Shown: positions 42,323-63,598, counted from the first letter of the stretch. The stretch is 64,000 nt of DNA from an uncultured delta proteobacterium (GCA_963778115.1 CAVZSV010000001.1:65011-129010), one strand, 5' to 3'. Numbers and translations are program-made. Notes: generated by a model not told the origin, from the sequence alone.

Positions 42323-42347
42323 GTCCCGAAACGTCCCGATCGGGACC
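42323..42347. promoter_or_regulatory. GTCCCGAAACGTCCCGATCGGGAC. A direct-plus-inverted GTCCC(R) repeat cluster, boundary element copy A
   Basis: Two direct GTCCCGA copies plus the palindrome GTCCCGATCGGGAC, located ~120 bp downstream of the 17-bp core. Confidence 0.5.
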
Positions 42348-42583
42348 GCATTAAAACGGTCTCGGTTGGACTTCGGGATACGTTTTTTCCTTTTCTGCCC
42401 GCCAACTTTTCAAGACCACATTTGAAAGGAATGAGTATGAAACTCTTTCAGTGGATAGGAAGCCTAATGGCCATCGCTTGCCTTATGGAAATTGCTCACA
42501 ACCCCAGGTACTTAATGACACTCAACAAGGGCCAGCACCACACTTGACTCGGTTTAACGACGAACTGGTAAAGGGAGGAATGA

Positions 42584-42955
42584 CTATCTCTTCCGGTTGC
42601 TCTCTACATAATGGAAGATCTCTGGCAAACACTTATCGAAAACATCGGTGATGTCGATGCCGTAGATCCTTTTCGCACGGGCAATAATTTTCTTGCGGTA
42701 GGCTTCGTACGGTTTTTTACCTGCGGGCCCAAAGTCGAAAATAGTAGACCGGTCGGTAATGAGCGCCTCTGGGTGTTTGAGAACATGGAGCAAGAAATGG
42801 TCTGCGATGTCCGAGACGAAATTAAGCTTCTCTTGTGAAGCAACAACGACCGTTTGTCCTTTAAACGGTCCTTTGTCTAGCTTGAACGGAGGAAACTTGT
42901 CATCGATGCGTCTCTTCTTCATGGCAGCAAACCTTGCTACAAACTGGGGAAGCAA
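42584..42955 (-). CDS. Hypothetical protein
   Basis: 123-aa ORF with no recognised domain. It is the first gene inside module 1. Confidence 0.3.
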   Translation of the reverse strand: MLPQFVARFAAMKKRRIDDKFPPFKLDKGPFKGQTVVVASQEKLNFVSDIADHFLLHVLKHPEALITDRSTIFDFGPAGKKPYEAYRKKIIARAKRIYGIDITDVFDKCLPEIFHYVESNRKR

Positions 42956-43137
42956 TCAATGAAAAGCCATCGGTGTGACGCTCCCCTATTACCCTGGCGT
43001 ACCGTTCCTCTCGGAGGCATAATCACCGAGCCAGGAGATCGATCGCGAGCTATTTATTAACTATCTGAAATTACAAAAGTATTCGGTTACCGGTAAATTA
43101 CTTCTTATGCTAATATTGGCGTCGTGGAGAATGGATC

Positions 43138-43401
43138 ATGAAAGAATTGAAAAACAAACCTGAAGAAACGAAGGAGCCATCGCTTTACGAACAGGCGATG
43201 CGGGCTAAGCCGCGATTTGACTCAAAAGAAGAAGCGATCGAATTCTATACAAATAAATTAAATGCACTTGCCTCAAAGCGAGTGACTACAGTTCCGAAAA
43301 TACTTACTGAAGCAGAAACATCTCCTGTCTTTGATGAAGATTTTCTGGAAGCTCGCAATCTTTGGAACTCTCTCTCTAGCGTGAAGGCTCTCTCGAAGTA
43401 A
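43138..43401 (+). CDS. Hypothetical small protein
   Basis: 87-aa ORF. Confidence 0.25.
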   Translation: MKELKNKPEETKEPSLYEQAMRAKPRFDSKEEAIEFYTNKLNALASKRVTTVPKILTEAETSPVFDEDFLEARNLWNSLSSVKALSK

Positions 43402-43473
43402 TCCATGGCATGGGCCGATCTAGTCTTCTTGCGAGTCGCTTGCGCAGTGTTGGTTTGCTTGCAACTTGGTTCA

Positions 43474-44340
43474 TCATGCGGCGGTCTTCCTCCTATGGGA
43501 TTTCGCTTCAGCTGCGGCACGATGATACTTGTGGGCAATCGCCGAAAGGTCCACGGTCGGCGAGGGTAATTTCATTTTCAGATTTTCCAGGGTGCTCGTG
43601 ATTATCTGGGAGATAGCAAGATCGCGGAACCATTTGTGGTCCGATGGGATAACGAACCATGGGGCGTGCTTGGTATTGGTCTTGTGCAATAGATCCTCAT
43701 ACGCCTTCGTATACTCATCCCAGTACTCCCGCTCTTTATAATCAGAATCACTGATTTTCCAATTTCTGGCTGGGTCATCCAATCTCTTCTTAAAGCGTGC
43801 GAGCTGTTCTTCCTTCGATATGTGTAAGAAAAACTTGAGGATGGTCGTGTTGTTTTGGATAGCAAGAAGCCTTTCGAAATCATTGATGAGATCGAAGCGC
43901 TTGGACCACTCTTTTTGAGGCACAAGTTTATGGACTCGAACGACGAGAACATCCTCATAATGGGAGCGATTAAAAATAGCAACACTGCCCTTACGAGGTG
44001 CATGGGGGTGCACCCGCCACAGGAAGTCGTGTTCCAATTCTTCCGGGCTCGGTTGTTTAAAGGACGCAACGACGCACCCTTGAGGATTCATACCCGTCAA
44101 AACGTGTCTTACGACGCCGTCCTTACCTGCCCCATCCAGTCCTTGGAGAACAATAAGAAGGGAATGTGTATTCTCGGCGTACATCAGATATTGCAGTTGA
44201 TCCATCTTCTGCAGATGTTTTTGGATCACGGGCAGTCCTTCTCTGTGGGATTCGTGCTTTCCATGACTGCTAGGACTTAAGTCTGCGAGTCTGACTTTGG
44301 CGCCTGGCTCAATGAATAGTTTCTCTCGATAGTTCTCCAT
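43474..44340 (-). CDS. ppk2: Polyphosphate kinase 2 (PPK2) family polyphosphate:nucleotide phosphotransferase
   Basis: Walker A LLIVLQGLDGAGKDG, the lid/Walker B region, and conserved ...RVHPHAP...NRSHYEDVLVVRVH. Confidence 0.85.
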   Translation of the reverse strand: MENYREKLFIEPGAKVRLADLSPSSHGKHESHREGLPVIQKHLQKMDQLQYLMYAENTHSLLIVLQGLDGAGKDGVVRHVLTGMNPQGCVVASFKQPSPEELEHDFLWRVHPHAPRKGSVAIFNRSHYEDVLVVRVHKLVPQKEWSKRFDLINDFERLLAIQNNTTILKFFLHISKEEQLARFKKRLDDPARNWKISDSDYKEREYWDEYTKAYEDLLHKTNTKHAPWFVIPSDHKWFRDLAISQIITSTLENLKMKLPSPTVDLSAIAHKYHRAAAEAKSHRRKTAA

Positions 44341-44374
44341 ATTCCTCTCCCATTATTCTTGCAAAAACCAGGGA

Positions 44375-46888
44375 CTAAGAGGCTTCTCTCGTGGGCAGAG
44401 AGCCTTTAACAGTTTGAAGTAATTTTGAAGCCGGTGCCGAAACTTTGTTGGCTTGACCCGAATCCAGTATTCGATACGCGAGAAGCTTCAATCGGTCGTT
44501 TAGAAGCGCCCATGTTGCGGCATAAGCCCACACGAAAAACGCCCATCCCCATCCTAAGGGCGTCATAAACAGACCGTACACCGCAATCAACGTTGCTACG
44601 GTTTGTGTGCCTAGCACTGCTACCCACAAGATTCGGGCGGGACGAATAGACCAGAACGGTCCACGCGTCCTGGTCAGGAATATCGTCATATGTCCTGCGA
44701 CAGACAGTTTGAGGTACATTAGAGTTTGAATGTGATCGCGATCAAGATGAAAGACCCGCTCGCCAAGGTAGAAGAGAATGAATGCCGCTAAGACACCAAG
44801 GATGCCGAGCACAGTGGATATTCCGAGCACCAGGCGCATGTTCCACGCCTCCGGGGAATTCTTGTAATGAACTCTATCGTAAGCAATGGACAGAATAGCT
44901 CCGTCATTAAGTAAGGCCAACATGACGATCATGACTGCGGTCACTGGATAGAAGTTAAATACCAGGATCGAAAGAGTCATGAATAAGAGTACTCGCAAGG
45001 TCTCAGCGATTCGGTAAATCGCATAACTGTTCATCCGCTGAAAAATTTTACGACTCTCCTTTATAGCCGTGACTATTACGGATAGTCCCGGCGTCATGAG
45101 AACGATCGATGCCGCGGCACGAGCTGCATCCGTCGCATCCGAAACCGCGATACCGCAGTCGGCCTTCTTGAGAGCGGGAGCATCATTAACCCCATCGCCG
45201 GTCATGCCCACGATGTGGCCGCGTTTCTGGAGAACATCTACAATGTGAAACTTATGCTCCGGAAATACCTGCGCGAAACCATCCGATTTCTCAATGGAGT
45301 CTGCGAGCTCTTTAGTCTCCTCGTGCTTACTATCGGCAAACCCGCTGGCATTCAGGATATTGGTGCCCAGTCCCAACTTCTTGGCCGTTTCCCGAGCGAT
45401 TGCCATCTGGTCGCCCGTTACCATCTTGATGTTGACTCCCATCTGTCTGGCAGTGGTAATGGTCGCCTTGGCGTCTTCTCTTGGGGGATCGAAGAGCGGC
45501 AATACCCCTAAAAACTGCCACGCACCGTCGGCGCTTGTCCGAGCTACTCCAAGCGAGCGAAAACCGCGTGCGGCAAATTCATTCACGGCCTTTTCGACGT
45601 CTGCTTGGATCTTTCCGGCGTTTGCCGACAATTGCAGGACTACTTGGGGTGCTCCTTTTGTCGTCTTAAACTCTTTTCCGTCCGTTCCCTTCACCGTGGC
45701 TTCCGTACGCTTATGCACTGGATCGAACGGGAGGAAGTGAATCACCTGATAGCCCTTGAGTGCGGATTCGCTTTTCAGGCCCTTCAGAACGGCCAGGTCG
45801 ATAGTGTCTTTATCGTCCGCTCGTGACGCCAGAGCCGCACTTAGAATAAGATCATCCAACGTCGTTCCATTTACGGCGAATGGATCACCCAAGGTCAGTT
45901 TGTTCTGGGTCAAGGTGCCGGTCTTATCCGCGCACAGAACATCCACTCCTGCTAATTCCTCGATAGCGGTGAGGCGCGTCACAATCGCCTGCTCCTTGGC
46001 CAGAATTCGAGCCCCCACCGCCATCGTCACTGAAAGCACTGTGGGCATCGCTACGGGAATAGCGGCTACCGTCAACACTAGAGCAAACTGCAATGTGGTG
46101 AGAATCGGATCTCCCCTGAAGACAGCGATCGTAATAATCATCGCCACCAAAATAACGGCGAACACGATCAGATAATTACCAATCTTCAAAACGGCCTTCT
46201 GGAAATGACTGACGGTTCGTGCTTCGGCTACGAGTTCCGCGGTCTTTCCGAAAAAGGTGTTCTGACCCGTGGCATAGACGAGCGCATCTATTTCACCTTG
46301 GCGGACAACGGAACCGGAAAAGATCGCTTCCCCGGGCTTGCGCGTTGCAGGCAATGATTCACCGGTTAGCGTCGACTCATCCACTTCTATCGGGTCACCT
46401 GCAAGTAGACGCGCGTCCGCCGGTACAATGTCCCCCAATCGCACACGAATGACATCGCCCGGAACTAGATCACGCGCTGGCGCCGAGATCCACTGATTGT
46501 CGCGTCTCACCCGAGCGTTAATGGCAAGCTTTGCTTTAAGGGCCTCGATGGCGTTACCCGCCTGGCGTTCCTCCCAGAATCCCACGATGGCGTTGGAAAG
46601 TAACAATACGAGAATGATCAAGAAATCGGGCCAGTGGCGAGCTACCGCGGAAAGAATTACGGCCGCCTCGATCATCCACGGAATCGGTCCCCAAAAGTAG
46701 CTCAGAAACTTTAGAAATAGGTTCGTCTTCTTCTCTTCAATTGCGTTGGGACCATATTGGAGGAGCCGCTTCCGCGCCTCAGCTAGGCTGAGGCCGTCCG
46801 GCGATGCTCCTAACTTTTTTTCAAGTTCCGGTAGAGGCAATGATTTTAGATCGGCGTGGCCATGTGACTTAACCGTATTAGACATCAT
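44375..46888 (-). CDS. P-type ATPase, P3A (plasma-membrane H+-ATPase-like) subfamily
   Basis: Phosphorylation motif CADKTGTLT, plus TGES and MVTGDQ, and hinge GDGVNDAPALKKAD. The N-terminus (GPNAIEEKK..FLKFLSYFWGPIPWMIEAAVI) closely parallels plant/fungal AHA/PMA1 H+-ATPases. Confidence 0.9.
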   Translation of the reverse strand: MMSNTVKSHGHADLKSLPLPELEKKLGASPDGLSLAEARKRLLQYGPNAIEEKKTNLFLKFLSYFWGPIPWMIEAAVILSAVARHWPDFLIILVLLLSNAIVGFWEERQAGNAIEALKAKLAINARVRRDNQWISAPARDLVPGDVIRVRLGDIVPADARLLAGDPIEVDESTLTGESLPATRKPGEAIFSGSVVRQGEIDALVYATGQNTFFGKTAELVAEARTVSHFQKAVLKIGNYLIVFAVILVAMIITIAVFRGDPILTTLQFALVLTVAAIPVAMPTVLSVTMAVGARILAKEQAIVTRLTAIEELAGVDVLCADKTGTLTQNKLTLGDPFAVNGTTLDDLILSAALASRADDKDTIDLAVLKGLKSESALKGYQVIHFLPFDPVHKRTEATVKGTDGKEFKTTKGAPQVVLQLSANAGKIQADVEKAVNEFAARGFRSLGVARTSADGAWQFLGVLPLFDPPREDAKATITTARQMGVNIKMVTGDQMAIARETAKKLGLGTNILNASGFADSKHEETKELADSIEKSDGFAQVFPEHKFHIVDVLQKRGHIVGMTGDGVNDAPALKKADCGIAVSDATDAARAAASIVLMTPGLSVIVTAIKESRKIFQRMNSYAIYRIAETLRVLLFMTLSILVFNFYPVTAVMIVMLALLNDGAILSIAYDRVHYKNSPEAWNMRLVLGISTVLGILGVLAAFILFYLGERVFHLDRDHIQTLMYLKLSVAGHMTIFLTRTRGPFWSIRPARILWVAVLGTQTVATLIAVYGLFMTPLGWGWAFFVWAYAATWALLNDRLKLLAYRILDSGQANKVSAPASKLLQTVKGSLPTREAS

Positions 46889-47163
46889 CAGCGTGCTCCT
46901 TTTTCCGCTTCTGCATCACGGTGTGCGGATTAACTAGCGGGTCTTGGGTTATCACGCACAGATGGTCTAGCCAAGATGTTAGAAGCGGAAGGTCTGTCCG
47001 TTTTGGACGGCGAGTGGTCTCAGGACTCATTTTGGTGTTGGGACTTTATATGGTCTACAAGGGAATATTTACCTAAGATTTCACTGGTTCACCCCACATA
47101 ACCGAAGACACATTTTGATTATTGTTGACTCCGTACTATAGTACGGAGTCTATAATTTGAGGT

Positions 47164-47568
47164 GTGGATATGACTATTGGCAAACTGGCGGAGGCAGCGG
47201 GGGTCGGCGTGGAGACCATCCGTTTTTATGAGCGAAAAGGTCTCATCAAAAAGCCGCAGCGCAAAGACGGCGGATTTCGTTACTACTCAGACGAGGAAGC
47301 ATCAAGAGTACGGTTTGTAAAACGGGCCCAGGAGTTGGGGTTCACGCTACGCGAAGTGAAAGATCTCCTGGACCTTCAATCCAAGCGCAAGGTGACCGGC
47401 TCGCAGGTCCAAAAGAGGGCTCAAGAGAAAATAACCGAGATCCATAAAAAGATTTCTGACTTGAAACAAATGGAAGCGTCACTCCAGCGCCTTGCCGAAG
47501 TCTGCGGAGATGGCGAACAAGCCATCCGAGAATGCAAAATTTTCGACTGTTTTGGAAAAGGTTGCTGA
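47164..47568 (+). CDS. MerR-family metal(loid)-responsive regulator with a C-terminal Cys cluster
   Basis: MerR HTH (IGKLAEAAGVGVETIRFYERKGLI...ELGFTLREV), a coiled coil, then C-x8-C...C-x5-C. Confidence 0.85.
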   Translation: MDMTIGKLAEAAGVGVETIRFYERKGLIKKPQRKDGGFRYYSDEEASRVRFVKRAQELGFTLREVKDLLDLQSKRKVTGSQVQKRAQEKITEIHKKISDLKQMEASLQRLAEVCGDGEQAIRECKIFDCFGKGC

Positions 47569-47582
47569 AGAAAGGATTAATT

Positions 47583-48023
47583 ATGAGACCTCACTTATCA
47601 ATGAATGTGAAAAGCCTCGAAAAGTCGGTCGACTTTTACCGGACGGTATTTGGAGTTGAGCCCCAAAAGCGATCCTCTACCTACGCAAAATTTGACCTCA
47701 ATGACCCCCTTTTTAATTTCACCATGCACGAAGTTTCTGAAGGAAGAGATGCGAGTCGGGTCAATCATCTAGGTATCGAAGTCGGAAGCGTTGAAGAGGT
47801 ATTAGCCTGGAAGAAACGGCTTGAAACGAAGAAAATACAAACTTTGTCCGAGGAGAACGCCGAATGTTGTTTTGCGAAGCAGGATAAATTTTGGTTCCAA
47901 GACCCTGACGGTAATTCCTGGGAAGTCTTTTTTGTTCACGAGCAGCTGCCCGTTGAAGGAGCGGAACCCCCAAGAACAGTATCGAAAGCGGGAGCCTGTT
48001 CTACCGCCTCCAAGTGTTGTTAG
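47583..48023 (+). CDS. VOC/glyoxalase-fold protein of the ArsI/CadI family. The ORF opens at 47532
   Basis: VOC fold with a vicinal Cys pair (ENAECCF), as in ArsI C-As lyases and CadI, plus a C-terminal Cys-rich tail (ACSTASKCC). It lies in an ars operon context. Confidence 0.65.
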   Translation: MRPHLSMNVKSLEKSVDFYRTVFGVEPQKRSSTYAKFDLNDPLFNFTMHEVSEGRDASRVNHLGIEVGSVEEVLAWKKRLETKKIQTLSEENAECCFAKQDKFWFQDPDGNSWEVFFVHEQLPVEGAEPPRTVSKAGACSTASKCC

Positions 48024-48032
48024 TACCCATAG

Positions 48033-49088
48033 ATGAATCTCGTTAAAAAGAAACTGTCATTTCTCGACCGCTATCTGACTCTATGGGTTTTCCTGGCAAT
48101 GGGATTAGGACTCCTTCTAAGTATCCGGGCACCCGGGCTCACTAACGCCCTTACCAGAATGAGTTATGGAACTACGTCCTTACCCATCGCCATCGGTCTT
48201 ATTTTGATGATGTATCCGCCCTTAGCAAAGGTGCGGTTCGAAGAACTTCCGCCGGTTTTTCGAAATCGAAGAGTTTTGCTTCTGTCCTTAGTTCAAAACT
48301 GGATTTTGGGACCGCTTTTAATGTTTGTTCTCGCGGTTATTTTCCTAAGGGATCGGCCGGAATATATGGCAGGGCTCATATTGATTGGGCTCGCCAGGTG
48401 CATTGCCATGGTCATCGTCTGGAACGAGCTTGCCGAAGGAAGCACTGAGTATTGCGCGGGGCTTGTCGCCTTCAATTCTATTTTTCAGATCCTCTTTTTC
48501 CCACTTTACGCCTATGTCTTTCTAACGGTACTTCCCAATGTTCTTGGGATTCAATCTTTGAAATTAGATGTCTCTATTGGAGAAATAGCGAGGTCCGTAG
48601 GAGCCTATCTGGGCATACCATTTTTGGCGGGGTTTCTGACACGCTTTATTCTACGGCCCCGAAAGGGAGCTGATTGGTATGACAAGAGTTTCGTGCCGTT
48701 TATCAGTCCAATCACGCTTGTAGCGCTCCTTTTTACAATCGCCGTGATGTTTTCCCTTAAAGGAAATCAGGTCGTTGAACTCCCGATGGAGACGTTGAGA
48801 ATCGCGCTGCCGATGGCGATCTATTTCATCGTGATGTTTTTCCTGTCTTTTGCCTTGAGCGAAAAGGCGGGCGCCAGTTATCCACAGGCTACCAGTCTTT
48901 CTTTCACCGCAGCCTCAAACAATTTTGAGTTGGCCATTGCCGTCGCGATTTCTACCTTTGGGCTCCATAGTGGGGTTTCCTTTGCGACCGTAATCGGTCC
49001 CCTTGTTGAGGTGCCCGTGCTGATTTCACTCGTTCGGGCCGCTTTTTGGTTTAAGAAACGCTGGCCTCTGAAGGCAGAAATGAGGTGA
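48033..49088 (+). CDS. acr3: Arsenite efflux permease, ACR3 family
   Basis: The 10-TM bile/arsenite/riboflavin transporter fold with ACR3 signatures ([43 protein letters not shown]). Confidence 0.9.
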
Positions 49089-49092
49089 TGAA

Positions 49093-49560
49093 ATGAATAT
49101 CCTATTTATGTGTGTTGCCAATTCAGCTCGCAGCCAAATGGCCGAAGGGTTAGCCAAAAAAATATTTGATTCTTCAGTTCGGGTTGAAAGCGCCGGTTCG
49201 AATCCAAGCAAGGTCAATCCATTTGCGATTAAGGTAATGGAAGAAGTCGGGGTGGACTTAACTCAACACTATTCCAAATCCTACGATGAGCTGGAGCCGG
49301 CATTCATCGTCAAACTCGATTATGTCATCACCCTTTGTGCCGAGGAAGTGTGTCCTCAAATGGTATCTCGGGCAAAAAAAATCAACTGGCCTCTCTCTGA
49401 TCCTGCTAACAAAGCGGAAAATGACGAAATTCAATTGGCGACCTTTAGGGAAACTCGTAACTCACTCCTTTCTCGCCTTAGGGATTTCGCGAAGCAAAAT
49501 GGGATTAAATGGAAAAGCGGCGAAAGCGCGACCCACTGTTCTCTATCTCGACCGTCATAG
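49093..49560 (+). CDS. arsC: Arsenate reductase ArsC (LMW phosphotyrosine-phosphatase family)
   Basis: ILFMCVANSARSQMAEG is the CX5R P-loop of the LMW-PTP. It is the last gene of the ars operon. Confidence 0.75.
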   Translation: MNILFMCVANSARSQMAEGLAKKIFDSSVRVESAGSNPSKVNPFAIKVMEEVGVDLTQHYSKSYDELEPAFIVKLDYVITLCAEEVCPQMVSRAKKINWPLSDPANKAENDEIQLATFRETRNSLLSRLRDFAKQNGIKWKSGESATHCSLSRPS

Positions 49561-49587
49561 AGTCCGGCAATTTCTGCTGCGAGGATC

Positions 49588-49867
49588 GGTGTTTGAGTGT
49601 GTAGCGATTTTGGATTTGGTAAGGACGATGGAATTGGTGGAAGAAGGTATCGATGATTTGGAAATTGAGTTGGAGCATTTGGGGAAGATGTTGTCGGTGT
49701 TGATTCGATTTATTGAGACTAATCCGAGGAAATAAGAGTCCGATGGCGGGACGCAAATTTGATGGAACCTAGGTTGAGAGGGTTTGGAATTTTCGCAACA
49801 TTAACCGGCTACGCCGGTCTGGAGGTTAAGATTAAACTTAAGGGTAACCTTAATAGTTATGGCGGGG
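49588..49867 (+). repeat. 280-bp direct repeat, copy B. It contains a 5'-truncated copy of the four-helix-bundle gene 3' end (a gene fragment) and the 17-bp core at 49859-49875
   Basis: Near-identical to copy A. The ORF-track ORF 49286-49735 is a read-through artefact fusing the arsC antisense/out-of-frame region to this fragment. Confidence 0.85.
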
Positions 49868-49993
49868 CGGACGGGATTCTTTAGGACGATTTTGCAACGC
49901 GTTGGATCGTAACGATTATTAATAATCACAAAAGCTTACTCGTAAATTCGACATGACCGAAAGCGCACCAAACTGCCACTACTTGCCATTCCT

Positions 49994-50013
49994 GTCCCAC
50001 AGCCGTCCCACAC
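49994..50013. promoter_or_regulatory. CCTGTCCCACAGCCGTCCCACAC. GTCCCACA direct repeat, boundary element copy B
   Basis: Same architecture and offset from the core as copy A. It lies 57 bp upstream of the xis-like gene. Confidence 0.5.
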
Positions 50014-50069
50014 TTGAACCGTACGAACCGACCTTAACGAACACTTAGGCACACAATGAAGGAGGTACT

Positions 50070-50303
50070 ATGACTGACAAAAATGAGCCCGAGCAGATGG
50101 CTGCAGAAAATGACTATCGATTAGTTTGGACGTTTGATGATGTTGCCCGTGAGCTTCAGTGCTCTAAACGCCTGGTTGAAAAGCTTGTGCAAAAAGATCG
50201 TATTCCCCATGCAAAGGTGGGACGGCTTGTTCGGTTCAGTCCAGCCAGAATTAAAGAATGGATAGAGAAAGAGGGACGAGATGAATGCCTTATGCACCAT
50301 TGA
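50070..50303 (+). CDS. Excisionase/AlpA-family HTH DNA-binding protein
   Basis: 77 aa, ...FDDVARELQCSKRLVEKLVQKDRIPHAKVGRLVRFSPARIKEWIE matches the Xis/MerR-like winged-HTH 'excisionase family' pattern. Confidence 0.6.
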   Translation: MTDKNEPEQMAAENDYRLVWTFDDVARELQCSKRLVEKLVQKDRIPHAKVGRLVRFSPARIKEWIEKEGRDECLMHH

Positions 50304-50763: not shown

Positions 50764-50862
50764 GGCGCTGCGCTCCAGGAATGGAAGAGGGACTTCGGGA
50801 TAACACTTTCCGTGGAAGAGAATGGGGGCTACGCGTTGAACAAGCCGCTTTGCTTCGTGCTA

Positions 50863-52197: not shown

Positions 52198-52232
52198 TAT
52201 AGATCCTGCTTTCCGGCTCACTACCTTTTGGT

Positions 52233-54116: not shown

Positions 54117-54124
54117 AGTAATTT

Positions 54125-55024: not shown

Positions 55025-55046
55025 CCTACTCCTCGTTGAATCGCGA

Positions 55047-55328: not shown

Positions 55329-55329
55329 C

Positions 55330-55662: not shown

Positions 55663-55782
55663 TTTTCCTATTATAAGCTATAACTAATAATTAGTTCAAG
55701 CTAATACTCAAAACAACGACAACGGGTACGAGTCGAGGACTCGTCCGTTTCTGATTTAACTTATTGATATCATTGAGAAAAA

Positions 55783-55799
55783 ATGGCGGGGCGGACGGG
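55783..55799. repeat. Third copy of the 17-bp core ATGGCGGGGCGGACGGG
   Basis: Exact match to the terminal 17 bp of repeats A and B. It is followed by ~200 bp homologous to the post-core segments of A and B. Confidence 0.8.
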
Positions 55800-55872
55800 A
55801 CTCGGACGGCGGAGATTTTTAACGCATTGAGTTAATTCAAATAACAAAAACTAACAACGAGTTACTTGTTAG

Positions 55873-55996
55873 TGTGTCCCGCACAGAAACGCACCAATTA
55901 GCCCCTTTTACCCCTATCCTGTCCCACAAACGTCCCACAAAAAAGCGAGTGGGACGGGTACGAGCGTAGGCGGAGTTTGGCGTGGGACGGTTTCGT
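55873..55996. repeat. ~125-bp repeat, copy C, containing GTCCCACAAACGTCCCACAAAAAAGCGAGTGGGAC (55921-55955)
   Basis: About 90% identical to 63474-63598. Homologous to the motif regions of A and B. Confidence 0.8.
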
Positions 55997-56022
55997 CCCC
56001 TGATGGGGGCAATCTCCCGTGA

Positions 56023-56466
56023 TCAAAGGGGGCAATGGGAGGCGAAATCAAACCACAGGCCTTTGAATTGTTCGATAAACTTCTTCAGGTTGTCGATTCC
56101 GTCCGGTTTTTTGAAATAGAAGCTGGCGCCGTTGGCGTAAAACTCACAAACGTCTTTTTCTAACTCTCCGCTCGAAAACGCACAGACGGGAATTCTCTTG
56201 AAAGCGGGATCAGCTTTTAATTCCCTAAGCACCTCTTGCCCGGATTTTCCGGGCATCCGAACGTCGAGCAGAATGACTTGAGGTTTGGCTTCGGGGGAAG
56301 ACCTGAGTAGCTTGAGGGCTTCGTCTCCACTTTTGGCCGTGGTAACCCGCAGGCCTGAATCCACCATTTTGATGACGGATTTCATTAGCTGAAGTTGATC
56401 CAATGCATCGTCCACGATCATCACGTGCGGTCTCATGCTGCTTTTCCTCCAATACTTTTGGGACAT
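56023..56466 (-). CDS. Single-domain response regulator (receiver)
   Basis: HVMIVDD, then VILLDVRMP (Asp), then a K at KKPDGIDNL. It overlaps the histidine kinase gene end. Confidence 0.85.
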   Translation of the reverse strand: MSQKYWRKSSMRPHVMIVDDALDQLQLMKSVIKMVDSGLRVTTAKSGDEALKLLRSSPEAKPQVILLDVRMPGKSGQEVLRELKADPAFKRIPVCAFSSGELEKDVCEFYANGASFYFKKPDGIDNLKKFIEQFKGLWFDFASHCPL

Positions 56467-57959
56467 CTAAAATAGAATGTGCTACCTGTTCCCGGTACTG
56501 AATCCACCCAAATACGGCCGCCGAAGAGCTCAACGATCTTCTTGCAAAGGGCTAAGCCGATTCCAGTACCCGGATACTCTTCGTTACTATGCAGTCTGTT
56601 GAACATCTCGAAAATTCTATCGGTGTGCTGCGGTTCGATCCCGATACCATTGTCTTTTACAGAAAACTCATAGCAGTCGGCCTGTTCGTTGAAACCGATA
56701 TCTATCTCGGGCTCGCGAGATTTGTCCCGATAGGTCAAAGCATTGCGAATCAGGTTAGTAAATAAAGACTCCCAAAGACTGGATACCCCTTGTACCGCTG
56801 GAAGCTTCCCACAATGGATATGAGCGTGGGCGATCTCTACGTCCTGTTTCAGGTTGGACAATATGCCCTGGACCACCTGGTCTAACTCGATATGCCTGAC
56901 GTGAGTCGCTGAAACATTCACTTTGGCAAGTTCGAGAATATCATTAACAAGAGCGTTTGCCTTCTTGCCGTTCTCCTCGATGAACCCGATCGCCTGGTCT
57001 ATCTCCTCATTTCGGGGTTTGGGGACTAACCGGTCCAACATCTGCGCCCATGAAACGATGGATCGCAGTGGAGAGCGCAGGTCATGAGCCGCAACGCCAG
57101 CAAACTGCTCCAGTTCCTTATTGGAGCGGCTCAATTGCTGGGCGTTCATTTCGAGCTGCTTTTGAGTTTCTGAAAGACTTCCGACCATATGATTGATAGC
57201 GATCGTAAGCTTCTCAATTTCGTCGGTCCCCTTTAGACTGGCCACTCGCGCATCGAGATTCCCCCCTGCAATAGCATCAGCCACCCGTCTCATCTCCCAG
57301 AGCGGCAGAATGAGCGTTCTGTACGTACTAACCCCCGATACGATGGCCAGAAGTAAAAGTGCTAGGGTAAGTCCAGTCATTACCCTGCGAAATCGCTGGT
57401 CAGCCGCCTCCAGATCGACTCCTGCCCTGTGCAGCTTCTTCACATTGAAAATATTTAAATCAGCAATCGCGGCTTCGTTAATCTGTTTCTTGTTGATCCA
57501 AACGTTGAAGACCCTTGCGATCCGTTTCTCCGAACCTTCATCGATGGCATTTACCAGCGCCTCCTGAAGATCCACAATGCCTTTTCTACTTTCAAGGTAA
57601 GCCTCAAATACTCGCTGTCCCCTTCTTGAAGGATTCAAGATTTTCATCTGCTCAATGCATGAGAGAATCTCCTTGTCCGCGTTGCGAAGCAGTCGAAGAT
57701 AAATCGGTTTAGGATCAAATCGATACGAAAGAAGGTATTTTTTCTTGTCGCTTACGAATTTTCTAATCTGGCTGGTTAATAAGCTCGCTTTCTGGACCTT
57801 ATCGAAGACAAGGGTTGCCGCCTCCTTCCTCTGTTGAATGGAGACTGCGAGGTAAATGAAGGAGCCTAGGACCAAACAGAAAATCAAGAACTGGGGAAGA
57901 ATTACCTTGAAGAGCAGGCTCCGCATCTGAAAATGCGTTTGTCGAGTCTGACCGTTCAT
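56433..57959 (-). CDS. Sensor histidine kinase (TM-periplasmic-TM-HAMP-HisKA-HATPase)
   Basis: HAMP (ILPLWEMRRVADAIAGG). H-box FAGVAAHDLRSPLRSI. HATPase_c motifs DNGIGIE and GTGIGLALCKKIVELFGGRIWVDSVPGTGSTFYF. Confidence 0.85.
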   Translation of the reverse strand: MNGQTRQTHFQMRSLLFKVILPQFLIFCLVLGSFIYLAVSIQQRKEAATLVFDKVQKASLLTSQIRKFVSDKKKYLLSYRFDPKPIYLRLLRNADKEILSCIEQMKILNPSRRGQRVFEAYLESRKGIVDLQEALVNAIDEGSEKRIARVFNVWINKKQINEAAIADLNIFNVKKLHRAGVDLEAADQRFRRVMTGLTLALLLLAIVSGVSTYRTLILPLWEMRRVADAIAGGNLDARVASLKGTDEIEKLTIAINHMVGSLSETQKQLEMNAQQLSRSNKELEQFAGVAAHDLRSPLRSIVSWAQMLDRLVPKPRNEEIDQAIGFIEENGKKANALVNDILELAKVNVSATHVRHIELDQVVQGILSNLKQDVEIAHAHIHCGKLPAVQGVSSLWESLFTNLIRNALTYRDKSREPEIDIGFNEQADCYEFSVKDNGIGIEPQHTDRIFEMFNRLHSNEEYPGTGIGLALCKKIVELFGGRIWVDSVPGTGSTFYFRCPKSIGGKAA

Positions 57960-58990
57960 GGGCGACTCCAGGCGGGTTTTTCACTTAGCGTCACCGCTTC
58001 ATAGCTCACCTTTTCCAAAAGGCTCGGGTACAGTACGTGCGAGATATCGACAAGAGGGGGATGACTGGATTCCAGAGCTTCATACCACTCAGCCTCCTGT
58101 TGCATGATGGCCAGAAGGACGTTGTTCAGTTTGAGCCCTCGTCGAAGGGACTTCGAAACCACCGAAATCTCTTTTGCGGTTCCGAACTGGTTACCAAGTT
58201 CTCGGGTGATTATGCTCACCACTTCCTCTGGATTGTCATACTCAAGTTGTTCCGCGCGAAACAACGCCCGAAGGAGTTTAGTAAACGGCGCGCCCTTGGC
58301 AACGACTCGGCTTCGCAGGCCCACAAGCATAGACATCTCAACATAGTCATCTGAGTAGAAGACTTTTATTTGACTAGGAGGAAGAGTATTTTGAATCCTA
58401 ATTAAATGTGGATTCCAAGTGACGACTGCGTCCACCGTCTCACTTTTTAGCGCCCTTAGCATGTCGCCAGGCTCTAAACTTACAAACTTAACCTTTCTAA
58501 GACCAAGGCCGGCCGAGCGGATCATAGACGTCGCAAGAAAATGGCTCGTCGATTTCGGGGTGACACCGACACGTTTTCCACGAAGATCCTCAATTGATTC
58601 AATGCCACTGTTTTTTCTCGCGACCAGAGCGGTATTGTGGGTAGCCTCATGTAAAGAAGTGAGGACTGCGAGATCTTGACCGTCAATCGCTTGCAGTACG
58701 ATCGGTGTCTCGTATGAGGTAGCAAGGTCCACCTTACCGGCAATGGCAGCCTTGAGGGCGTCTCTTCCCGAAGGATAGGGAGCGAGCACGACGTCCAGTC
58801 CCTCATCCCGAAAGTAGCCCTTCGCTAGAGCTACATAGAGAAGGCCAAAGCTCACTTGCTGAGCATCACCGATAACAATCCTCTCAAGCTTAGGACGCTT
58901 CCAGTTTTCAAAGAAGGCTATAGTGAGCAGAGCGGTCAGGAAGAATCCGACGAGGATGAAAAGGGGAATCTTTTTCACCGTGGCAGGCAT
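57956..58990 (-). CDS. Periplasmic substrate-binding protein (NMT1/THI5-like, nitrate/sulfonate/bicarbonate SBP family), co-transcribed with the kinase
   Basis: N-terminal anchor. ...VIGDAQQVSFGLLYVALAKGYFRDEGLDVVL..GRDALKAAIAGKVDLA is the NMT1 pattern. There is a 4-nt overlap with the kinase gene start. Confidence 0.65.
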   Translation of the reverse strand: MPATVKKIPLFILVGFFLTALLTIAFFENWKRPKLERIVIGDAQQVSFGLLYVALAKGYFRDEGLDVVLAPYPSGRDALKAAIAGKVDLATSYETPIVLQAIDGQDLAVLTSLHEATHNTALVARKNSGIESIEDLRGKRVGVTPKSTSHFLATSMIRSAGLGLRKVKFVSLEPGDMLRALKSETVDAVVTWNPHLIRIQNTLPPSQIKVFYSDDYVEMSMLVGLRSRVVAKGAPFTKLLRALFRAEQLEYDNPEEVVSIITRELGNQFGTAKEISVVSKSLRRGLKLNNVLLAIMQQEAEWYEALESSHPPLVDISHVLYPSLLEKVSYEAVTLSEKPAWSRP

Positions 58991-59083
58991 GTCTGGCTAT
59001 CCCCTCAGTTGCCCTTGTGGGACGCTGTTATAGGACTTTAACTATGATGGCCTCATAGCAGATGTGCCGCAAGGTGTCAAAAC

Positions 59084-59094
59084 CGGGGGGGGGG
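59084..59094. repeat. G11 homopolymeric tract (candidate slipped-strand phase-variation site)
   Basis: CCGGGGGGGGGGGTTCCCC read directly from the sequence. It lies ~230 bp upstream of the lipoprotein ORF. Confidence 0.9.
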
Positions 59095-59326
59095 GTTCCC
59101 CTTACCGTGAGCCTCAGAAATTGGCTAGAAAGCATTCCACTCCTGAAGTTTCGACTCGAAACAGAAACGCTCGCAGCGTTGTATTCTCACGGTCTTCGCG
59201 CCCCACCGTTAGTATGCGCATCGCATGTAATCTTCAGTTCATCCTCCTGTTATGTTCGGTGCGTTAAAATTAAGTAAAGACAAGCCCTCGCTGTGTGGGG
59301 TTGCGAAACAAAGAAAGGAAGCCAAT

Positions 59327-59548
59327 ATGAAAAGCATCTATCGATTGTTATTCGTCGCGGGAGTTTTCCTATTGGCGTCCTGTGGAAATCAGTGTGGCCC
59401 GGGAACTTACGATAACGGGAATGGTTGTGTGTACTCTGCTAACAATTACAATTATCCCTATAACGGAGGATATGGGAATTCTTCCTACCCAGGTAGCTAT
59501 CAACCCGGTTATCCAAACTACAACTATCCCGGGTATTATCCTCATTAG
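59327..59548 (+). CDS. Small lipoprotein with a Tyr/Asn/Gly/Pro-rich low-complexity tail. The ORF opens at 59252
   Basis: Lipobox FLLASC followed by NYNYPYNGGYGNSSYPGSYQPGYPNYNYPGYYPH. Confidence 0.4.
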   Translation: MKSIYRLLFVAGVFLLASCGNQCGPGTYDNGNGCVYSANNYNYPYNGGYGNSSYPGSYQPGYPNYNYPGYYPH

Positions 59549-59725
59549 GCGCGCTAGCAATCGTAGCGAGGTTTCTACCGATGGTCCGGTTCAGGGCGGC
59601 CATCACGATTAACTTGCCGATCCTGATCGGGATTAATTCGCAAACCACCGCAGCCCACGATGCCAAAAAGAAAACAGAACAAGACGATCCATTTCATAAT
59701 GGTTAACCTCGTTTTCTGTCCCTGG

Positions 59726-60694
59726 TCATGAATGAATCACCCAGACCGGCAGGTTTGCGTTTCGCAGCACGGCTCGTGTTACACTCCCTAGAAAATTGAT
59801 ATCGAAACCTTCTTTGCGGGAAACCATGGCGATAATCCCCGAACTCAGATCTCGGGCGGTCTTCACAATGTCACCGGCCGGATCAGTACCTTCCTCAATC
59901 AGAATCAGTTTTGCTCTAACGCCGTTCTTTTTTGCCACTTTTTGAAACCGACAAAGAGTAGCGTATTTCTTCGAGGCCACCTCTTTAACAGTTCGCCGAT
60001 AGGATTCCGGAGGGCCAAATGTCGACTCCCCATGCTCTCGAAGAAATTCCGATTCATGAAATAGCGTAATTTTGGCGCCGTGCTGTTGGGCCATGGCAAC
60101 TACTCTTCTGAAGCCCACCAAGGAAGCCTTACTGAGATCGGTGGGAAACAATATATTCTGGATCTTTTCAACGACTCGGGCCTTAGGCGTAACGATGAGA
60201 AGGGGCACATCCGATTGTGCCACCAACGTCTCCGCGAAGCTTCCCAGAATCAAACGATTGAGTCCTTTTCGTGAACGACTCGTGATTGCGAGAAGAGACA
60301 CGTTCGATGCCCTTGCATAAATGAGAAGGTCACGTGCGACTCGTCTCAGGGAAGAGTTACGTGACGTCAGAAGAAGGGGATCTGACATTTCGGGGATATC
60401 GAACCTCTCCAGCTGCCGTTTTATTTTCTTACTAAGCGAAAGGCGCATTTCCGAGGAGTGAGGGCTGAAGTAATCAGGTGGCACTCTGAGCTGCGTTGGA
60501 TTCATCAGATAGACGGGTTCGATGGTCTCGTGGTTTAACTTGCTCCAAGCCCGTAGAAGCTTTGCCATCTTTGCCTGTATGGCGAAGTCATTGGCAAAAG
60601 TATCAAAGGCCCAGAGTACCCGTTTGGTTCTATTGGTTTCCTGCATAAGCTCCTTACCGATTGAAAAGCCGTCTAGCCGTTTCTCAGGGGTCAA
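59726..60694 (-). CDS. Tandem universal stress protein (UspA) domain protein
   Basis: Two Usp domains. The C-terminal ATP-binding pattern is ...IIAMVSRKEGF....GSVTRAVLRNANLPVWVI. Confidence 0.8.
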   Translation of the reverse strand: MTPEKRLDGFSIGKELMQETNRTKRVLWAFDTFANDFAIQAKMAKLLRAWSKLNHETIEPVYLMNPTQLRVPPDYFSPHSSEMRLSLSKKIKRQLERFDIPEMSDPLLLTSRNSSLRRVARDLLIYARASNVSLLAITSRSRKGLNRLILGSFAETLVAQSDVPLLIVTPKARVVEKIQNILFPTDLSKASLVGFRRVVAMAQQHGAKITLFHESEFLREHGESTFGPPESYRRTVKEVASKKYATLCRFQKVAKKNGVRAKLILIEEGTDPAGDIVKTARDLSSGIIAMVSRKEGFDINFLGSVTRAVLRNANLPVWVIHS

Positions 60695-61133
60695 GAGGAA
60701 ATCGAAATGAAAAGTGATTCACCTTTCCTTTCCTTTTTGCCTTTATAATAATTTCATCTCCCGCCTCTCGACGTTCTGGGTGGGATATCCGGCACTCAAA
60801 ATAATCTTTCTCAAGCCCGCAGTAGAAATTTGTCTCGAGCCCTTTGCTTTTGAGGAGAAGGTAGATTGAGGCGTCTCCAACGATGGGATTCGCATTTTCA
60901 GCGTTGAGCAAATAAACTTTGACCCCCTTTTGGCCATCCATCAGAAGCTCTGCGTGAAACGCGTCTCCCTTTCTTACAATCCCACCGTGCGGGCCTGTCT
61001 TCGGAGAGGTATCACCCAAGGAGACGGTGGGAGCTAGAGAAGATAGAAGGAGAAGGAGAAAAGAGATCCATGCGGGACAAGACGCTAATTCAATTCGATG
61101 CTCTTTCTGCTGTAGAAAGACATTCAACGGCAC
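60684..61133 (-). CDS. Hypothetical exported protein
   Basis: 149-aa ORF with a hydrophobic N-terminal segment. Confidence 0.3.
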   Translation of the reverse strand: MPLNVFLQQKEHRIELASCPAWISFLLLLLSSLAPTVSLGDTSPKTGPHGGIVRKGDAFHAELLMDGQKGVKVYLLNAENANPIVGDASIYLLLKSKGLETNFYCGLEKDYFECRISHPERREAGDEIIIKAKRKGKVNHFSFRFPLDP

Positions 61134-61417
61134 CCCGCGCTGCGTGTGGATATCAATTGCTCGTAGACTGGAAACCTAATTACCTTCCCCGGAGGAGTGC
61201 GTGGTCCACCTGGTTTTGGAAGGTTGGGAGTTCCAAGGGTTCGGGCAATCAGACAAAGTGAATACACAAAACAGAAAAACACGCTCAACCTCGATACTGA
61301 GACAATGATGCCGCCTCCAAAAGTCATGGACCAATGAAAGTTGCTTTTCATACCAAGGTAGACTGCGACTGCAATGCTACCCAGATAGACGTTCCTTCTG
61401 AAGATAAAAGGCACCAT
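61124..61417 (-). CDS. Small membrane protein
   Basis: 97 aa with two predicted TM helices. Confidence 0.3.
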   Translation of the reverse strand: MVPFIFRRNVYLGSIAVAVYLGMKSNFHWSMTFGGGIIVSVSRLSVFFCFVYSLCLIARTLGTPNLPKPGGPRTPPGKVIRFPVYEQLISTRSAGCR

Positions 61418-61505
61418 TCTATCCGATAATAGCAGTGCCGAATTACAGGACGATGAATTCTTGATTACATTTGATCATCTTAGATGAGTGACTTAACGCC
61501 ATGCT

Positions 61506-61775
61506 TTAGGCGACGTCCCGTTTTTCTACAATAACCATTTTCCTTTTTTTCTTCGTCGGAGTTTCTGCGTTAAAGTAACTATCGGTTACCTGCTCCCGCC
61601 AGCGCTTAAATCGCCCGGTAAGACCCGACAGGTTCGATCTGATTTGAGCTGGAAGCGCCGCTATTTCAGACAACACTTCGCGTGGCAGTCCCAACTCAAG
61701 CTCCCCCGCGAACCCGGAGAGCTTCAGATAAAGGAGGTACTCAGTGTCTTTTGTCGTTCCAAATTTAAGTCGCAT
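61506..61775 (-). CDS. Hypothetical protein
   Basis: 89-aa ORF. Confidence 0.25.
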   Translation of the reverse strand: MRLKFGTTKDTEYLLYLKLSGFAGELELGLPREVLSEIAALPAQIRSNLSGLTGRFKRWREQVTDSYFNAETPTKKKRKMVIVEKRDVA

Positions 61776-62022
61776 GCCTAATTCCTTTCATTCGTTCGAA
61801 TTAACACGATCTGCAATATAGTCTTTCTTCATTACAGGAGAATGAATTTAGGATGATTTTTCGCGTAAGGTCACTTTAGGGACCCATCGAAGAAGAGCGA
61901 GTTTGAGCCAGTCATTGAGCCCAAGAGAGGCGATGAGCGAGCCGAAAAAAGCAACGGCGATCGCTGGCGTTCGAACCGTTGGGCCTGCGAGAATCAGGCG
62001 ATTCCATAACCACCGCGCAAGT

Positions 62023-62439
62023 TCAAGAAGCCACCTTTTGAGATCCTTCAGAAAGTCCTTCGAGCGCTCGCTCGAGTTTTTGATCCGCTTCACCGGCCAG
62101 CTTTACCAGACGATCATCCCCCAGCATTTCCATAATGGCCGAGGGGCGCACGAATTCCACCGACATCCGGCCAGAACCCAAGTCTCGAACGACTGCATTA
62201 CAGGGAAGAAGACTCGCGACATCGGGATTCGCCACGTAGGCTTCGTAGGCAAGGTTCGGATTACAAGCCCCCAGAATGACGGTGGCGGCAATATCCTTTC
62301 CCGTCTTTTCTTTTATCTTCGAGTGGAGATCGATACGGGTAAGAACTCCGAAACCCTCTTGCTTCAGCGCGTTCGTCGCTTGGGCAACGATATCTTCCAG
62401 ATTACCAATGACCGTTCGCTTGAAGTTAATCTTGTTCAT
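62023..62439 (-). CDS. DUF302 domain protein
   Basis: ...GFGVLTRIDLH...ATVILGACNPNLAYEA...LLPCNAVV matches the DUF302 consensus. The +-strand ORF 61903-62445 is its shadow. Confidence 0.65.
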   Translation of the reverse strand: MNKINFKRTVIGNLEDIVAQATNALKQEGFGVLTRIDLHSKIKEKTGKDIAATVILGACNPNLAYEAYVANPDVASLLPCNAVVRDLGSGRMSVEFVRPSAIMEMLGDDRLVKLAGEADQKLERALEGLSEGSQKVAS

Positions 62440-62449
62440 GGATAGTGCC

Positions 62450-62803
62450 TCAATCCTTCTTCTCGGGTTCGGTGCCGCCCTCTTTCATCATCCTGTGCTT
62501 ACCACGCATCCCGCGATGCATTCCCTTCATCCCGTACATCTCTTCCATCATAGGACAATGGTCTTCTTTCGCCATTGGGCATTCCTTTTTCATTTGCTCG
62601 TGACATTCAGACATCGGCTTATCGGAGCGTAAGCACTCAGCCATCTTCTTGTGCATATCGGCCATCTTGTCCATCAGGTCTGCGCGCTTTACGCGCTCTT
62701 CTTTGGTAAGCTCTGGCATTTTCTTGGTGTCGTCGTTGGCGCGACCCACGGGCGACTGAAGAATAAACATGGAAAGGACTAACAACGTTGCAAAGCGCAT
62801 CAT
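62450..62803 (-). CDS. Periplasmic Met/His-rich protein with a CpxP/Spy-like LTxxE segment. It is a candidate metal-binding stress protein
   Basis: Signal peptide. LTKEERVKRADLMDKMADMHKKM. The C-terminus has MxxM/H-rich clusters (HCPMMEEMYGMKGMHRGMRGKHRMM). Confidence 0.45.
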   Translation of the reverse strand: MMRFATLLVLSMFILQSPVGRANDDTKKMPELTKEERVKRADLMDKMADMHKKMAECLRSDKPMSECHEQMKKECPMAKEDHCPMMEEMYGMKGMHRGMRGKHRMMKEGGTEPEKKD

Positions 62804-63000
62804 AGGAACCTCTTCTGGCTAGTTAGGTTTAACTGCATCCACTTATAGTGCAAGTCACGCACCATGTATTGGCTCCAGCTCAGACAGAGTTCAGTTGATT
62901 CGAGAGACAAATAGTCCCGAAGTTTTCGCCTTTCGTCCCATCACGGGCCTTTGCCGGGCTCGTCGAACCGGCATCCCAGCTACAGAAGCATTGCGAGAAA

Positions 63001-63357
63001 TCACTGAAAAAAGCGGTACCTCTCCACAACCCAGACAAAAGCCAAGGCCAACACGATGAACACCAAGAGACCTAATCCTATTGAGCGATTCGATCCAAGC
63101 TTCGGAGCGGTATAGGCAATAACGGCCATATAAGGAACCCAGGAAACCAGCGTTCCCACCAACACGAACTTAGAATGCTGGCTTACGGCCACCGCGTCTT
63201 TGGCCGCGCCGATGAAAAAGTAGGAGACGATGGTAAATACCGGAACCAAAGCCGCGAATCCTGACCAGGTTCTAAGTCCGCTTTCTTCTAACCCGACAAT
63301 GAGTGCCGTCACTGTCCCTCCGATCAAAAAGGTCACTAGGAATCCAGAAAATGTCAT
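63001..63357 (-). CDS. 4-TM small membrane protein
   Basis: 118 aa and uniformly hydrophobic. Confidence 0.4.
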   Translation of the reverse strand: MTFSGFLVTFLIGGTVTALIVGLEESGLRTWSGFAALVPVFTIVSYFFIGAAKDAVAVSQHSKFVLVGTLVSWVPYMAVIAYTAPKLGSNRSIGLGLLVFIVLALAFVWVVERYRFFQ

Positions 63358-63473
63358 TGTGCCCTCATTTACAAAGTGCGCTCCTCTTTTATACCGCGCT
63401 GATCACGCTGACTAAGAAAAAGAAGCAGCGCTGAACCTCGATTGCAAGCGCGACCGATGCCGAGGAACATTCG

Positions 63474-63598
63474 GTGTGTTCCGCACGAAAACGCACCAAC
63501 TACCCCCTTTTACCCCTATCCTGTCCCACAAACGTCCCACAAAAAAGCGTGTGGGACGGGTACGAGCGTAGGCGGAGTTTGGCGTGGGACAGTTTTAT
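63474..63598. repeat. ~125-bp repeat, copy D, containing GTCCCACAAACGTCCCACAAAAAAGCGTGTGGGAC at 63523-63557
   Basis: About 90% identical to copy C. No 17-bp core lies upstream of it. Confidence 0.8.

Follow-up and report, generated by a model that had tools for sequence, protein, structure and literature searches.

What are the GTCCCACA repeats that recur at four sites (A to D) in the DNA of an uncultured delta proteobacterium, and what do they mark? The sites lie between positions 42323 and 63603 of a 64,000-nt stretch (GCA_963778115.1 CAVZSV010000001.1:65011-129010), hereafter the window, to whose whole length all positions refer; L-numbers denote comparator loci or contigs. A preliminary description had seen in them a binding array for a site-specific recombinase or a dedicated regulator, with iterons and transcription terminators as further options. 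Among these, arm-type recombinase sites fared best: the spacing between the repeats and duplicated 3' ends of tRNA-Asp is constant, and the same motif class occurs in the integrase-proximal arm of integrase-bearing relatives. The segment from 42.2 to 64 kb is, in our judgement, probably a tandem array of integrase-less islands at tRNA-Asp, resembling cis-mobilizable elements (CIMEs), in which the GTCCCACA pairs would be arm sites of an integrase (Int) within attachment (att) junctions.

The repeated motif is non-random. The window holds 19 copies of GTCCCRMA where 8.2 +/- 2.8 would be expected, a count that none of 100 shuffles attained, and GTCCC-N6-GTCCC occurs three times (49994, 55921, 63523) against a chance expectation of 0.06; the full 19-mer pair matches at the same three positions with 0 mismatches. 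The sites, and the small gene next to site B, are:

42323..42379, plus strand: site A, candidate arm cluster, with GTCCCGA twice, inverted TCGGGAC (42340) and TTCGGGAT (42372), a nested hairpin and then a T-run.
49994..50012, plus strand: site B, candidate arm pair, GTCCCACA-GCC-GTCCCACA, with the start codon of xis 57 nt downstream.
50070..50303, plus strand: xis-family gene, candidate recombination directionality factor (RDF), 77 aa, HTH_17 (PF12728, 4e-10).
55872..56001, plus strand: site C, candidate arm, with a degenerate GTCCCGCA (55876), CGCAC-N5-CGCAC boxes, the pair at 55921/55932 and inverted GTGGGAC at 55949 and 55982.
63474..63603, plus strand: site D, a copy of the site C arm lacking an upstream tRNA fragment.

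Direct copies had been placed 3-4 bp apart at all four sites. This holds for B (49994 and 50005), C (55921 and 55932) and D (63523 and 63534), which share an 11-nt period, but not for A, where the GTCCCGA variants at 42323 and 42333 follow a 10-nt period with 2 bp between the 8-mers. At A, TCGGGAC closes the perfect palindrome GTCCCGATCGGGAC, as had been described, and TTCGGGAT is a second inverted copy; B has no inverted copy close by. A hairpin with a 7-bp stem and a 10-nt loop had been assigned to both C and D: it is present at C, but at D the inverted copy TGTGGGAC (63550) forms a 9-bp stem with an 8-nt loop. The inverted copies reported further downstream were recovered at both sites (GTGGGAC at 55982, then GTCCCC at 55995, and GTGGGAC at 63584), so that the four copies of D make up nested inverted repeats. 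Sites C and D are contained in a 130-nt repeat (55872-56001 and 63474-63603, 93% identity).

Sites A, B and C each belong to a junction unit of the same kind, composed of a 16-21-nt copy of the tRNA-Asp(GTC) 3' end, a leader of ~120 nt and the phased pair. A perfectly conserved 16-mer, TGGCGGGGCGGACGGG, for which 0.57 matches are expected by chance in the window at <=3 mismatches, lies at 42187, 49860 and 55784, and the pairs begin 118-121 nt downstream (120 nt for A, 118 nt for B, 121 nt for C). Its reverse complement comprises the CCA, the discriminator G, the 3' strand of the acceptor stem and the 3' strand of the T-stem of tRNA-Asp(GTC); the third fragment adds most of the T-loop. Fragments 1 and 2 also end a direct repeat of ~290 nt that precedes A and B and includes part of a gene for a 23S rRNA intervening-sequence (IVS) protein:

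42187..42202, minus strand: tRNA-Asp(GTC) fragment 1, leftmost array junction; matches the L017 tRNA-Asp exactly over 16 nt and E. coli aspV at 14/16.
49860..49876, minus strand: tRNA-Asp fragment 2; 17-nt exact run against the L017 tRNA-Asp.
55784..55804, minus strand: tRNA-Asp fragment 3, reaching the T-loop; 21-nt exact run against L017, 19/21 against annotated E. coli aspV.
41913..42202, plus strand: left copy of the 290-nt repeat, with the 3' part of the IVS-protein gene (41664-42062), the linker TTAATAGTTA and fragment 1.
49586..49875, plus strand: right copy of the 290-nt repeat, with a truncated IVS gene, the linker and fragment 2.

The core is shared with the attB target (the tRNA 3' end) as exact 16-21-nt copies, as in an arm-type system, and its position ~120 nt from the repeats does not support the suggestion that the repeats are themselves core-type sites. 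Among 13 fragments on 5 contigs, the exact run against tRNA-Asp ranges from 12 to 33 nt and is most commonly 17 nt, which places the boundary at the edge between T-stem and T-loop. Such a boundary is the usual mark of crossover in the T-loop by tRNA-targeting integrases, and the crossover would lie there in this system too. The two copies of the 290-nt repeat are 99% identical with 3 internal mismatches, and their identity ceases exactly at the last base of the 16-mer, which fits a crossover located at this point. The leader itself shows a 10-nt periodicity of C even without the pair (9 of 3000 shuffles attained it); it carries C-rich boxes phased at 10 nt, and these fit a bent, protein-coated arm. 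IVS-protein genes (PF05635), complete or 5'-truncated, stand directly to the left of tRNA-Asp fragments (window 41664-42062 and 49583-49735; L017 9456-9731; L026 3060-3470, 4065-4466 and 9309-9719), and a conserved linker ending in TTAATAGTTA connects the IVS gene to the fragment at 5 of ~13 junctions.

The motif was found at related island junctions (L013, L017, L026, L027), where the preliminary description had looked for a possible refutation. Across 10 junctions on 5 contigs, the distal pair begins 118-121 nt past the fragment, and the motif copies change in concert from unit to unit (GTCCCACA, GTCCCCCA, GTCCCGCA, GTCCCGA, GTTCCCT, GTCCCCG, AACCCC). L013 and L017, whose HTH_17 proteins are 63% and 53% identical to that of the window, repeat its layout of fragment, ~119 nt, pair and xis, with all four motif copies reading GTCCCCCA and not GTCCCACA. 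In L017, 2.8 kb of genes follow and then an intact tRNA-Asp(GTC) on the minus strand, so that the topology predicted from the window is seen in a relative. Fixed distances combined with a variable sequence and concerted change argue for sites that are read by a protein and co-evolve with their reader, and not for structure or chance.

Which protein might read them is suggested by elements resembling integrative and conjugative elements (ICEs) on long contigs. These carry TraC/TraG/TrbI, FtsK and a relaxase, and at the element end an xis gene overlaps the start of a gene for a 407-445-aa tyrosine integrase. Directly after the integrase comes tRNA-Asp (L018, on the minus strand, 8 nt beyond xis-int), tRNA-Ser (L022, L029) or a tRNA-Asp fragment identical to that of the window (L027). 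The Xis proteins that overlap the int start in these four elements are 51-65% identical to the window protein, whose own gene has no adjacent int. An int-proximal phased pair is present in 4/4 of them; counted from the end of the tRNA, its two copies start at -69 to -72 and at -59 to -62 (about -71/-61), in the variants GTCCCCC, AACCCC, GTCCC(A/G)C and GTCCCCG. The integrase-bearing element of L027 combines the motif of the window (GTCCCACA/GTCCCGCA) with its tRNA-Asp core. The integrases consist of PF00589 preceded by an unannotated N-terminus of ~200 aa.

A second array of the window type was found in L026, with five fragments (and a degenerate sixth at 6535), modules of 2-5 kb, three motif variants and cargo including Fic, ADH/LysR and Shedu SduA; no integrase was found in this array. 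One of its modules keeps both arms, with a four-site int-proximal arm and no int gene. Across this family, whose ICEs were each seen in part, the motif class occurs in both arms, and it does so in one L026 module; the window modules have it in the distal arm only. This arm (L026 6443-6550) consists of four GTCCCCCAAC copies in tandem, placed at -92 to -62 relative to the degenerate tRNA-Asp fragment (TGGCGGGGCAGAGTGG), with the same TGATTTCAG...GAAAA/TGG box as in the L027 ICE; it is an int-proximal arm whose integrase gene is lost.

Other loci place the motif class at further integrase boundaries. Exact-motif scans recovered L006 and L007/L010, with a window-like leader and pair and, ~130 nt upstream, a 3'-end-like fragment of a different tRNA in each; L010 has three direct copies and no inverted one. 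In L009 the pair lies 14 nt ahead of the ATG of a tyrosine integrase, and in L012 and L015 ACA-type and CCA-type pairs overlap the last codons of integrases with Pfam arm-DNA-binding domains (PF12167 and PF14657, respectively); these three integrases share only about 23% mutual identity. Copies in both arms and in inverted orientation are typical of Int arm-type sites, and it is because the motif class occurs in both arms, in both orientations and at the boundaries of unrelated integrase genes that we favour Int arm sites. L012 had no near match among phage records, the gapped fragment-plus-pair pattern gave no match in viral contigs, and a literature search on the motif strings returned unrelated primer sequences only. 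An exact-motif scan of GTDB representative genomes gave 2 matches (L003, in a coding region, and L002, uninformative), which we judged to be chance, ~4 being expected for 19 specified bases.

Two viral contigs also hold triple repeats of GTCCCACA or GTCCCCCA type phased at 11 nt (L005/L011 7702-7735, L014 6540-6585), with no integrase within the DNA stretch examined; those of L005 lie upstream of a gene resembling a phage replication-protein C-terminal domain. These triple repeats could be iterons or arm sites. For the repeats of the window, the iteron option has no support: there is no associated replication gene in the window.

The proposal in the preliminary description that 50070-50303 is a Xis is supported. 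Both Pfam (HTH_17) and the predicted fold indicate a MerR-like winged helix-turn-helix (wHTH) protein, and its homologues share operons with tyrosine integrases. The AlphaFold model (core pLDDT about 80-86) matches BldC (6AMA), RdfS (8DGL) and Pukovnik Xis (4J2N) with a probability >= 0.98, at 13-23% sequence identity to those solved structures. A profile search gave 84 homologues, several of them called 'excisionase family DNA binding protein' by JGI. A second xis, of ICE type (P0080), is encoded on the same 196-kb source contig and hints at a resident helper ICE. Inside the xis gene, an inverted match to site B (CAAAGGTGGGACGGCT, 50212-50227) falls on the codons for the invariant KVGRL wing motif and is thus most likely a coding-sequence by-product rather than an extra binding site.

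Three cargo modules, each 5.9-7.7 kb long and free of an integrase, lie between the junction units:

42203..49859: module M1, with PPK2, a P-type ATPase, ars-like MerR/glyoxalase/ACR3-SBF/low-molecular-weight (LMW) phosphatase genes and a truncated IVS-protein gene (Pfam).
49877..55783: module M2, with xis, three ThsB-like TIR genes, TPR-S/MAP3K-like, SLOG-like and SLATT genes and a Gp49/HTH toxin-antitoxin pair.
55805..63473: module M3, with a response regulator, a HAMP histidine kinase, an NMT1-type binding protein, Usp, DUF302 and small open reading frames.

The fragments at 42187, 49860 and 55784 bound M1 and M2 on both sides, and M3 on its left side only; M1 and M2 are accordingly delimited by direct repeats of the target 3' end, as CIMEs are. 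Integration and transfer genes are likewise missing, as in CIMEs: Pfam found no PF00589, serine recombinase, transposase or type IV secretion system (T4SS) gene in 40-64 kb, and neither Pfam nor tblastn with 7 integrases detected an integrase or transposase anywhere in the window. ARAGORN found no tRNA or tmRNA in the window. The first part of the window (1-37 kb) is ordinary chromosome, including MreB and YebC. At the other end, Logan assembly pieces from the same sample break off at repeats, and no full-length match was retrieved for the open reading frame that the right edge truncates.

These observations can be assembled into a scheme. The islands would have inserted successively into a tRNA-Asp(GTC) gene, at its 3' end; this gene would lie on the minus strand, beyond the right edge of the window. 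Each junction (core copy, leader and pair, often with inverted copies beyond) would provide the right-hand neighbouring island with its distal recombination arm. The pairs, one helical turn apart, would dock the N-terminal domain of a heterobivalent tyrosine integrase, presumably of the family encoded as xis-int operons on ICE-like elements. Int would bridge arm and core, and a wHTH Xis, of which 50070-50303 is one copy, would bend the arm to give the excision or integration complex. Having lost their own integrase, the modules, CIME-like at best, would move only with Int supplied in trans, possibly from an ICE on the same source contig. Since neither an integrase nor an intact tRNA-Asp lies within the window, this supply in trans is something that we infer.

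Several observations weigh against this scheme. The missing integrase and intact tRNA-Asp are one of them. Another is that no int-proximal arm sites were recognisable to the left of the window fragments and that site D has no core; for this reason the window sites may be fossils rather than functional sites. No arm-binding domain was recognised by Pfam in the ICE-type integrases, and the junctions compared are homologous, so that the conservation counts are not fully independent. The scheme also does not account for the recurrence of the IVS gene with its TTAATAGTTA linker, for how the 290-nt duplication arose or for site D, which has no core. The remaining difficulties concern Xis. Direct repeats phased at one helical turn are also a hallmark of RDF/Xis sites, which are commonly of this form and bound cooperatively (PMC7498355). 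The pair lies just upstream of xis at B (by 57 nt) and, at a similar distance, in L013 and L017. Finally, the first residues of the Xis recognition helix vary with the motif variant (RLVE/SFVR with the ACA motif; RH(I/V)Y, RQVY and SYVY with C-rich motifs), although this correlation comprises n = 7 cases and is confounded by co-inheritance with Int.

Taken together, the points on Xis make a coherent alternative, in which the att junctions are the same but the GTCCCACA pairs bind the wHTH HTH_17 excisionase head-to-tail, bending the distal arm and, at B, also serving xis autoregulation. BldC and RdfS, the best structural matches, bind phased direct repeats in this way, and the degenerate phased boxes that continue upstream would fit cooperative spreading. 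This alternative has difficulty, however, with the same motif in the int-proximal arm at -71/-61 of four ICE-like elements; to our knowledge, RDFs occupy one arm only in well-studied systems (lambda, L5). Inverted copies (A, C, D, L006, L013) are a misfit for head-to-tail filaments, no xis adjoins A, C, D or L010, and the same motif class stands at the boundaries of three unrelated phage integrase genes. We regard Xis binding as unlikely to be the principal function of the pairs, though as a serious, live minority alternative; it is also the form in which the earlier proposal of operators for a dedicated regulator survives. Terminators, in which direct and inverted copies would form RNA or DNA hairpins that end transcription and insulate the modules instead of binding a recombination protein, are suggested above all by site A. 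Its strong hairpin (z = -5.4), followed by ACGTTTTTTC, was picked up by a terminator scan (match at 42359-42379); C and D also fold as nested hairpins (z = -1.5 to -2.7), and stems covary across units (GTCCCAC/GTGGGAC, GTCCCCCA/TGGGGGAC, GTCCCGA/TCGGGAC). Yet when both strands were folded, A alone had the GC-rich hairpin and U-run of an intrinsic terminator: no structure is predicted for B (z = +1.7 and -0.6 on the plus and minus strands, respectively), and no T-run follows the C or D hairpins on either strand. L010 has its three direct copies without an inverted one, the loop or spacer between the arms varies (0, 4, 8, 15 nt), a terminator does not explain why the direct pair is universal and its distance from the tRNA fragment fixed, and Rfam gave no match. 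As a function shared by the four sites, insulation by terminators, as had been proposed, is very improbable. A structured RNA at the repeats was rejected as well, ARAGORN and Rfam being blank (no Rfam match reached the gathering threshold anywhere in the window, nor was there one at E <= 10 within 55700-56050).

Two other kinds of mobile system can be set against Int arm sites. Site D reads ...GTCCCACAAACGTCCCACA/AAAAAGCG/TGTGGGACGGG..., with abutted TGT/ACA termini, and the sites are dense on one side and spaced on the other, an arrangement that recalls the right and left ends of Tn7; the repeats could then be transposase-binding sites at the abutted ends of tandem Tn7/Mu-like DDE transposons (5'-TGTGGGAC...GTCCCACA-3'). 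Against this, no transposase (rve, TnsA/B/C or Mu type) was found in the window or in any related array, B and L010 have no opposed end, target-site duplications are absent, the sites keep their fixed 118-121 nt from tRNA fragments, and the relatives carry tyrosine integrases; with no locus that has a transposase, we consider such ends effectively refuted. An integron attC array likewise has no support: the junctions have no R''/L''-L'/R' boxes (GTTRRRY core), the modules are multi-gene and bidirectional, and the recombinases are of the ICE type, xis-int. A bolder extension of the Int arm-site reading would make the tRNA-Asp locus an open-ended, integron-like capture platform, in which integrase-less modules of 2-8 kb, each with one fragment and one standardised arm, are inserted, excised and shuffled by ICE-borne Int/Xis acting in trans, the IVS-protein gene with its TTAATAGTTA linker being perhaps a functional accessory and not passive cargo. 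We hold this to be rather improbable.

Further features were observed among the cargo and at its left edge. The ThsB-like TIR genes of M2 (50290-50763, 53010-53567 and 53577-54116) are all on the minus strand, and the module also encodes a 519-aa TPR-S/MAP3K_TRAF_bd protein with a TIR-effector match, a SLATT_3+SLATT_1 membrane protein and a Gp49/HTH_3 pair. M2 is thus a compact defence island and could be a Thoeris-like system with a SLATT effector. In M1, a perfect 18+18-nt dyad (ATTGTTGACTCCGTACTA/TAGTACGGAGTCTATAAT, 47121-47156) lies over a TTGACT...TATAAT promoter just upstream of a MerR-family gene (47164-47568). Lying in the promoter spacer of the ars-like operon (MerR, glyoxalase, ACR3, LMW phosphatase), this dyad has the look of a classic MerR-type operator. 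Two mutually related, near-perfect palindromes of ~95 nt (40984-41077 and 41516-41608; DNA fold z -7.2 and -13.0) flank a DoxX-like gene (41111-41494) and could be elements similar to miniature inverted-repeat transposable elements (MITEs) or repetitive extragenic palindromes (REPs), or bidirectional terminators. Just left of the array, the 807-aa product of a minus-strand gene (37597-40020) contains a NOV_C domain and has weak PADLOC matches to TmtA/HmaA C-termini; the gene may be defence-related and part of an older, boundary-less island (M0).

Altogether, an anonymous repeat is turned into a precise map of module boundaries, target (the T-loop end of tRNA-Asp(GTC)) and attP geometry, and a candidate Int/Xis family is proposed for a group of integrative elements that carry a T4SS and are so far uncharacterised. 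What is explained in this way is a hypervariable locus that stocks genes for defence (TIR/SLATT; Shedu and Fic in relatives), metal and arsenic resistance, and signalling. The concerted motif variants at fixed positions offer a natural specificity series for the co-evolution of arm sites with Int or Xis, or for orthogonal integration tools.

The system is of a well-known kind, that of heterobivalent integrases and tandem accretion, in an uncharacterised lineage; what is new is this lineage, its motif, a geometry that could be defined (-71/-61 and +118 to +121) and the unusual regularity with which integrase-less modules follow one another. As with the arm-type P/P' sites of lambda Int and of IntS from ICEMlSym R7A, an integrase that acts together with RdfS and has its five P sites within an attP of 283 bp (PMC11963761), short repeats are grouped, across the family, in both arms, at tens to >100 bp from the core and phased at about one turn; on one side they overlap the int 3' end, the core is identical to a tRNA gene's 3' end, and a small wHTH RDF partners the integrase. 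In contrast to those sites, the motif here (GT[C/T]CCNN) and its integrase family are uncharacterised and the arm sites are candidates, the sites of the two arms point the same way while the distal arm has additional inverted copies, and the integrases have no Pfam arm-binding domain. The wHTH protein has the same predicted fold as the MerR-like RDFs and BldC (RdfS 8DGL, Pukovnik Xis 4J2N, BldC 6AMA), proteins that bind phased direct repeats, and its homologues are operonic with integrases; unlike them, it lies at the int-distal end of an integrase-less module and not beside int, and its identity to them is 13-23%. CIMEs and the tandem accretion of ICEs and IMEs (elements both integrative and mobilizable; ICESt1/ICESt3-type, PMC5704250) share with the window modules the direct repeats of the target 3' end, the loss of integration and transfer genes, the tandem arrangement at one tRNA gene and the presence of a related integrase-bearing ICE-like element in the same type of array (L027). 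They differ in that the window has at least 3 consecutive integrase-less modules and L026 at least 5, most of which keep the distal arm and fragment only. The tycheposon tRNA islands of Prochlorococcus (bioRxiv 10.1101/2020.12.28.424599) likewise show repeated site-specific integration beside a tRNA gene, partial copies of the tRNA that separate cargo blocks, numerous decayed remnants without an integrase, and adaptive or defence cargo. Here, however, the integrase lineage and the host are different, the helper would be a T4SS-bearing ICE-like element, and each junction carries a highly regular arm architecture.

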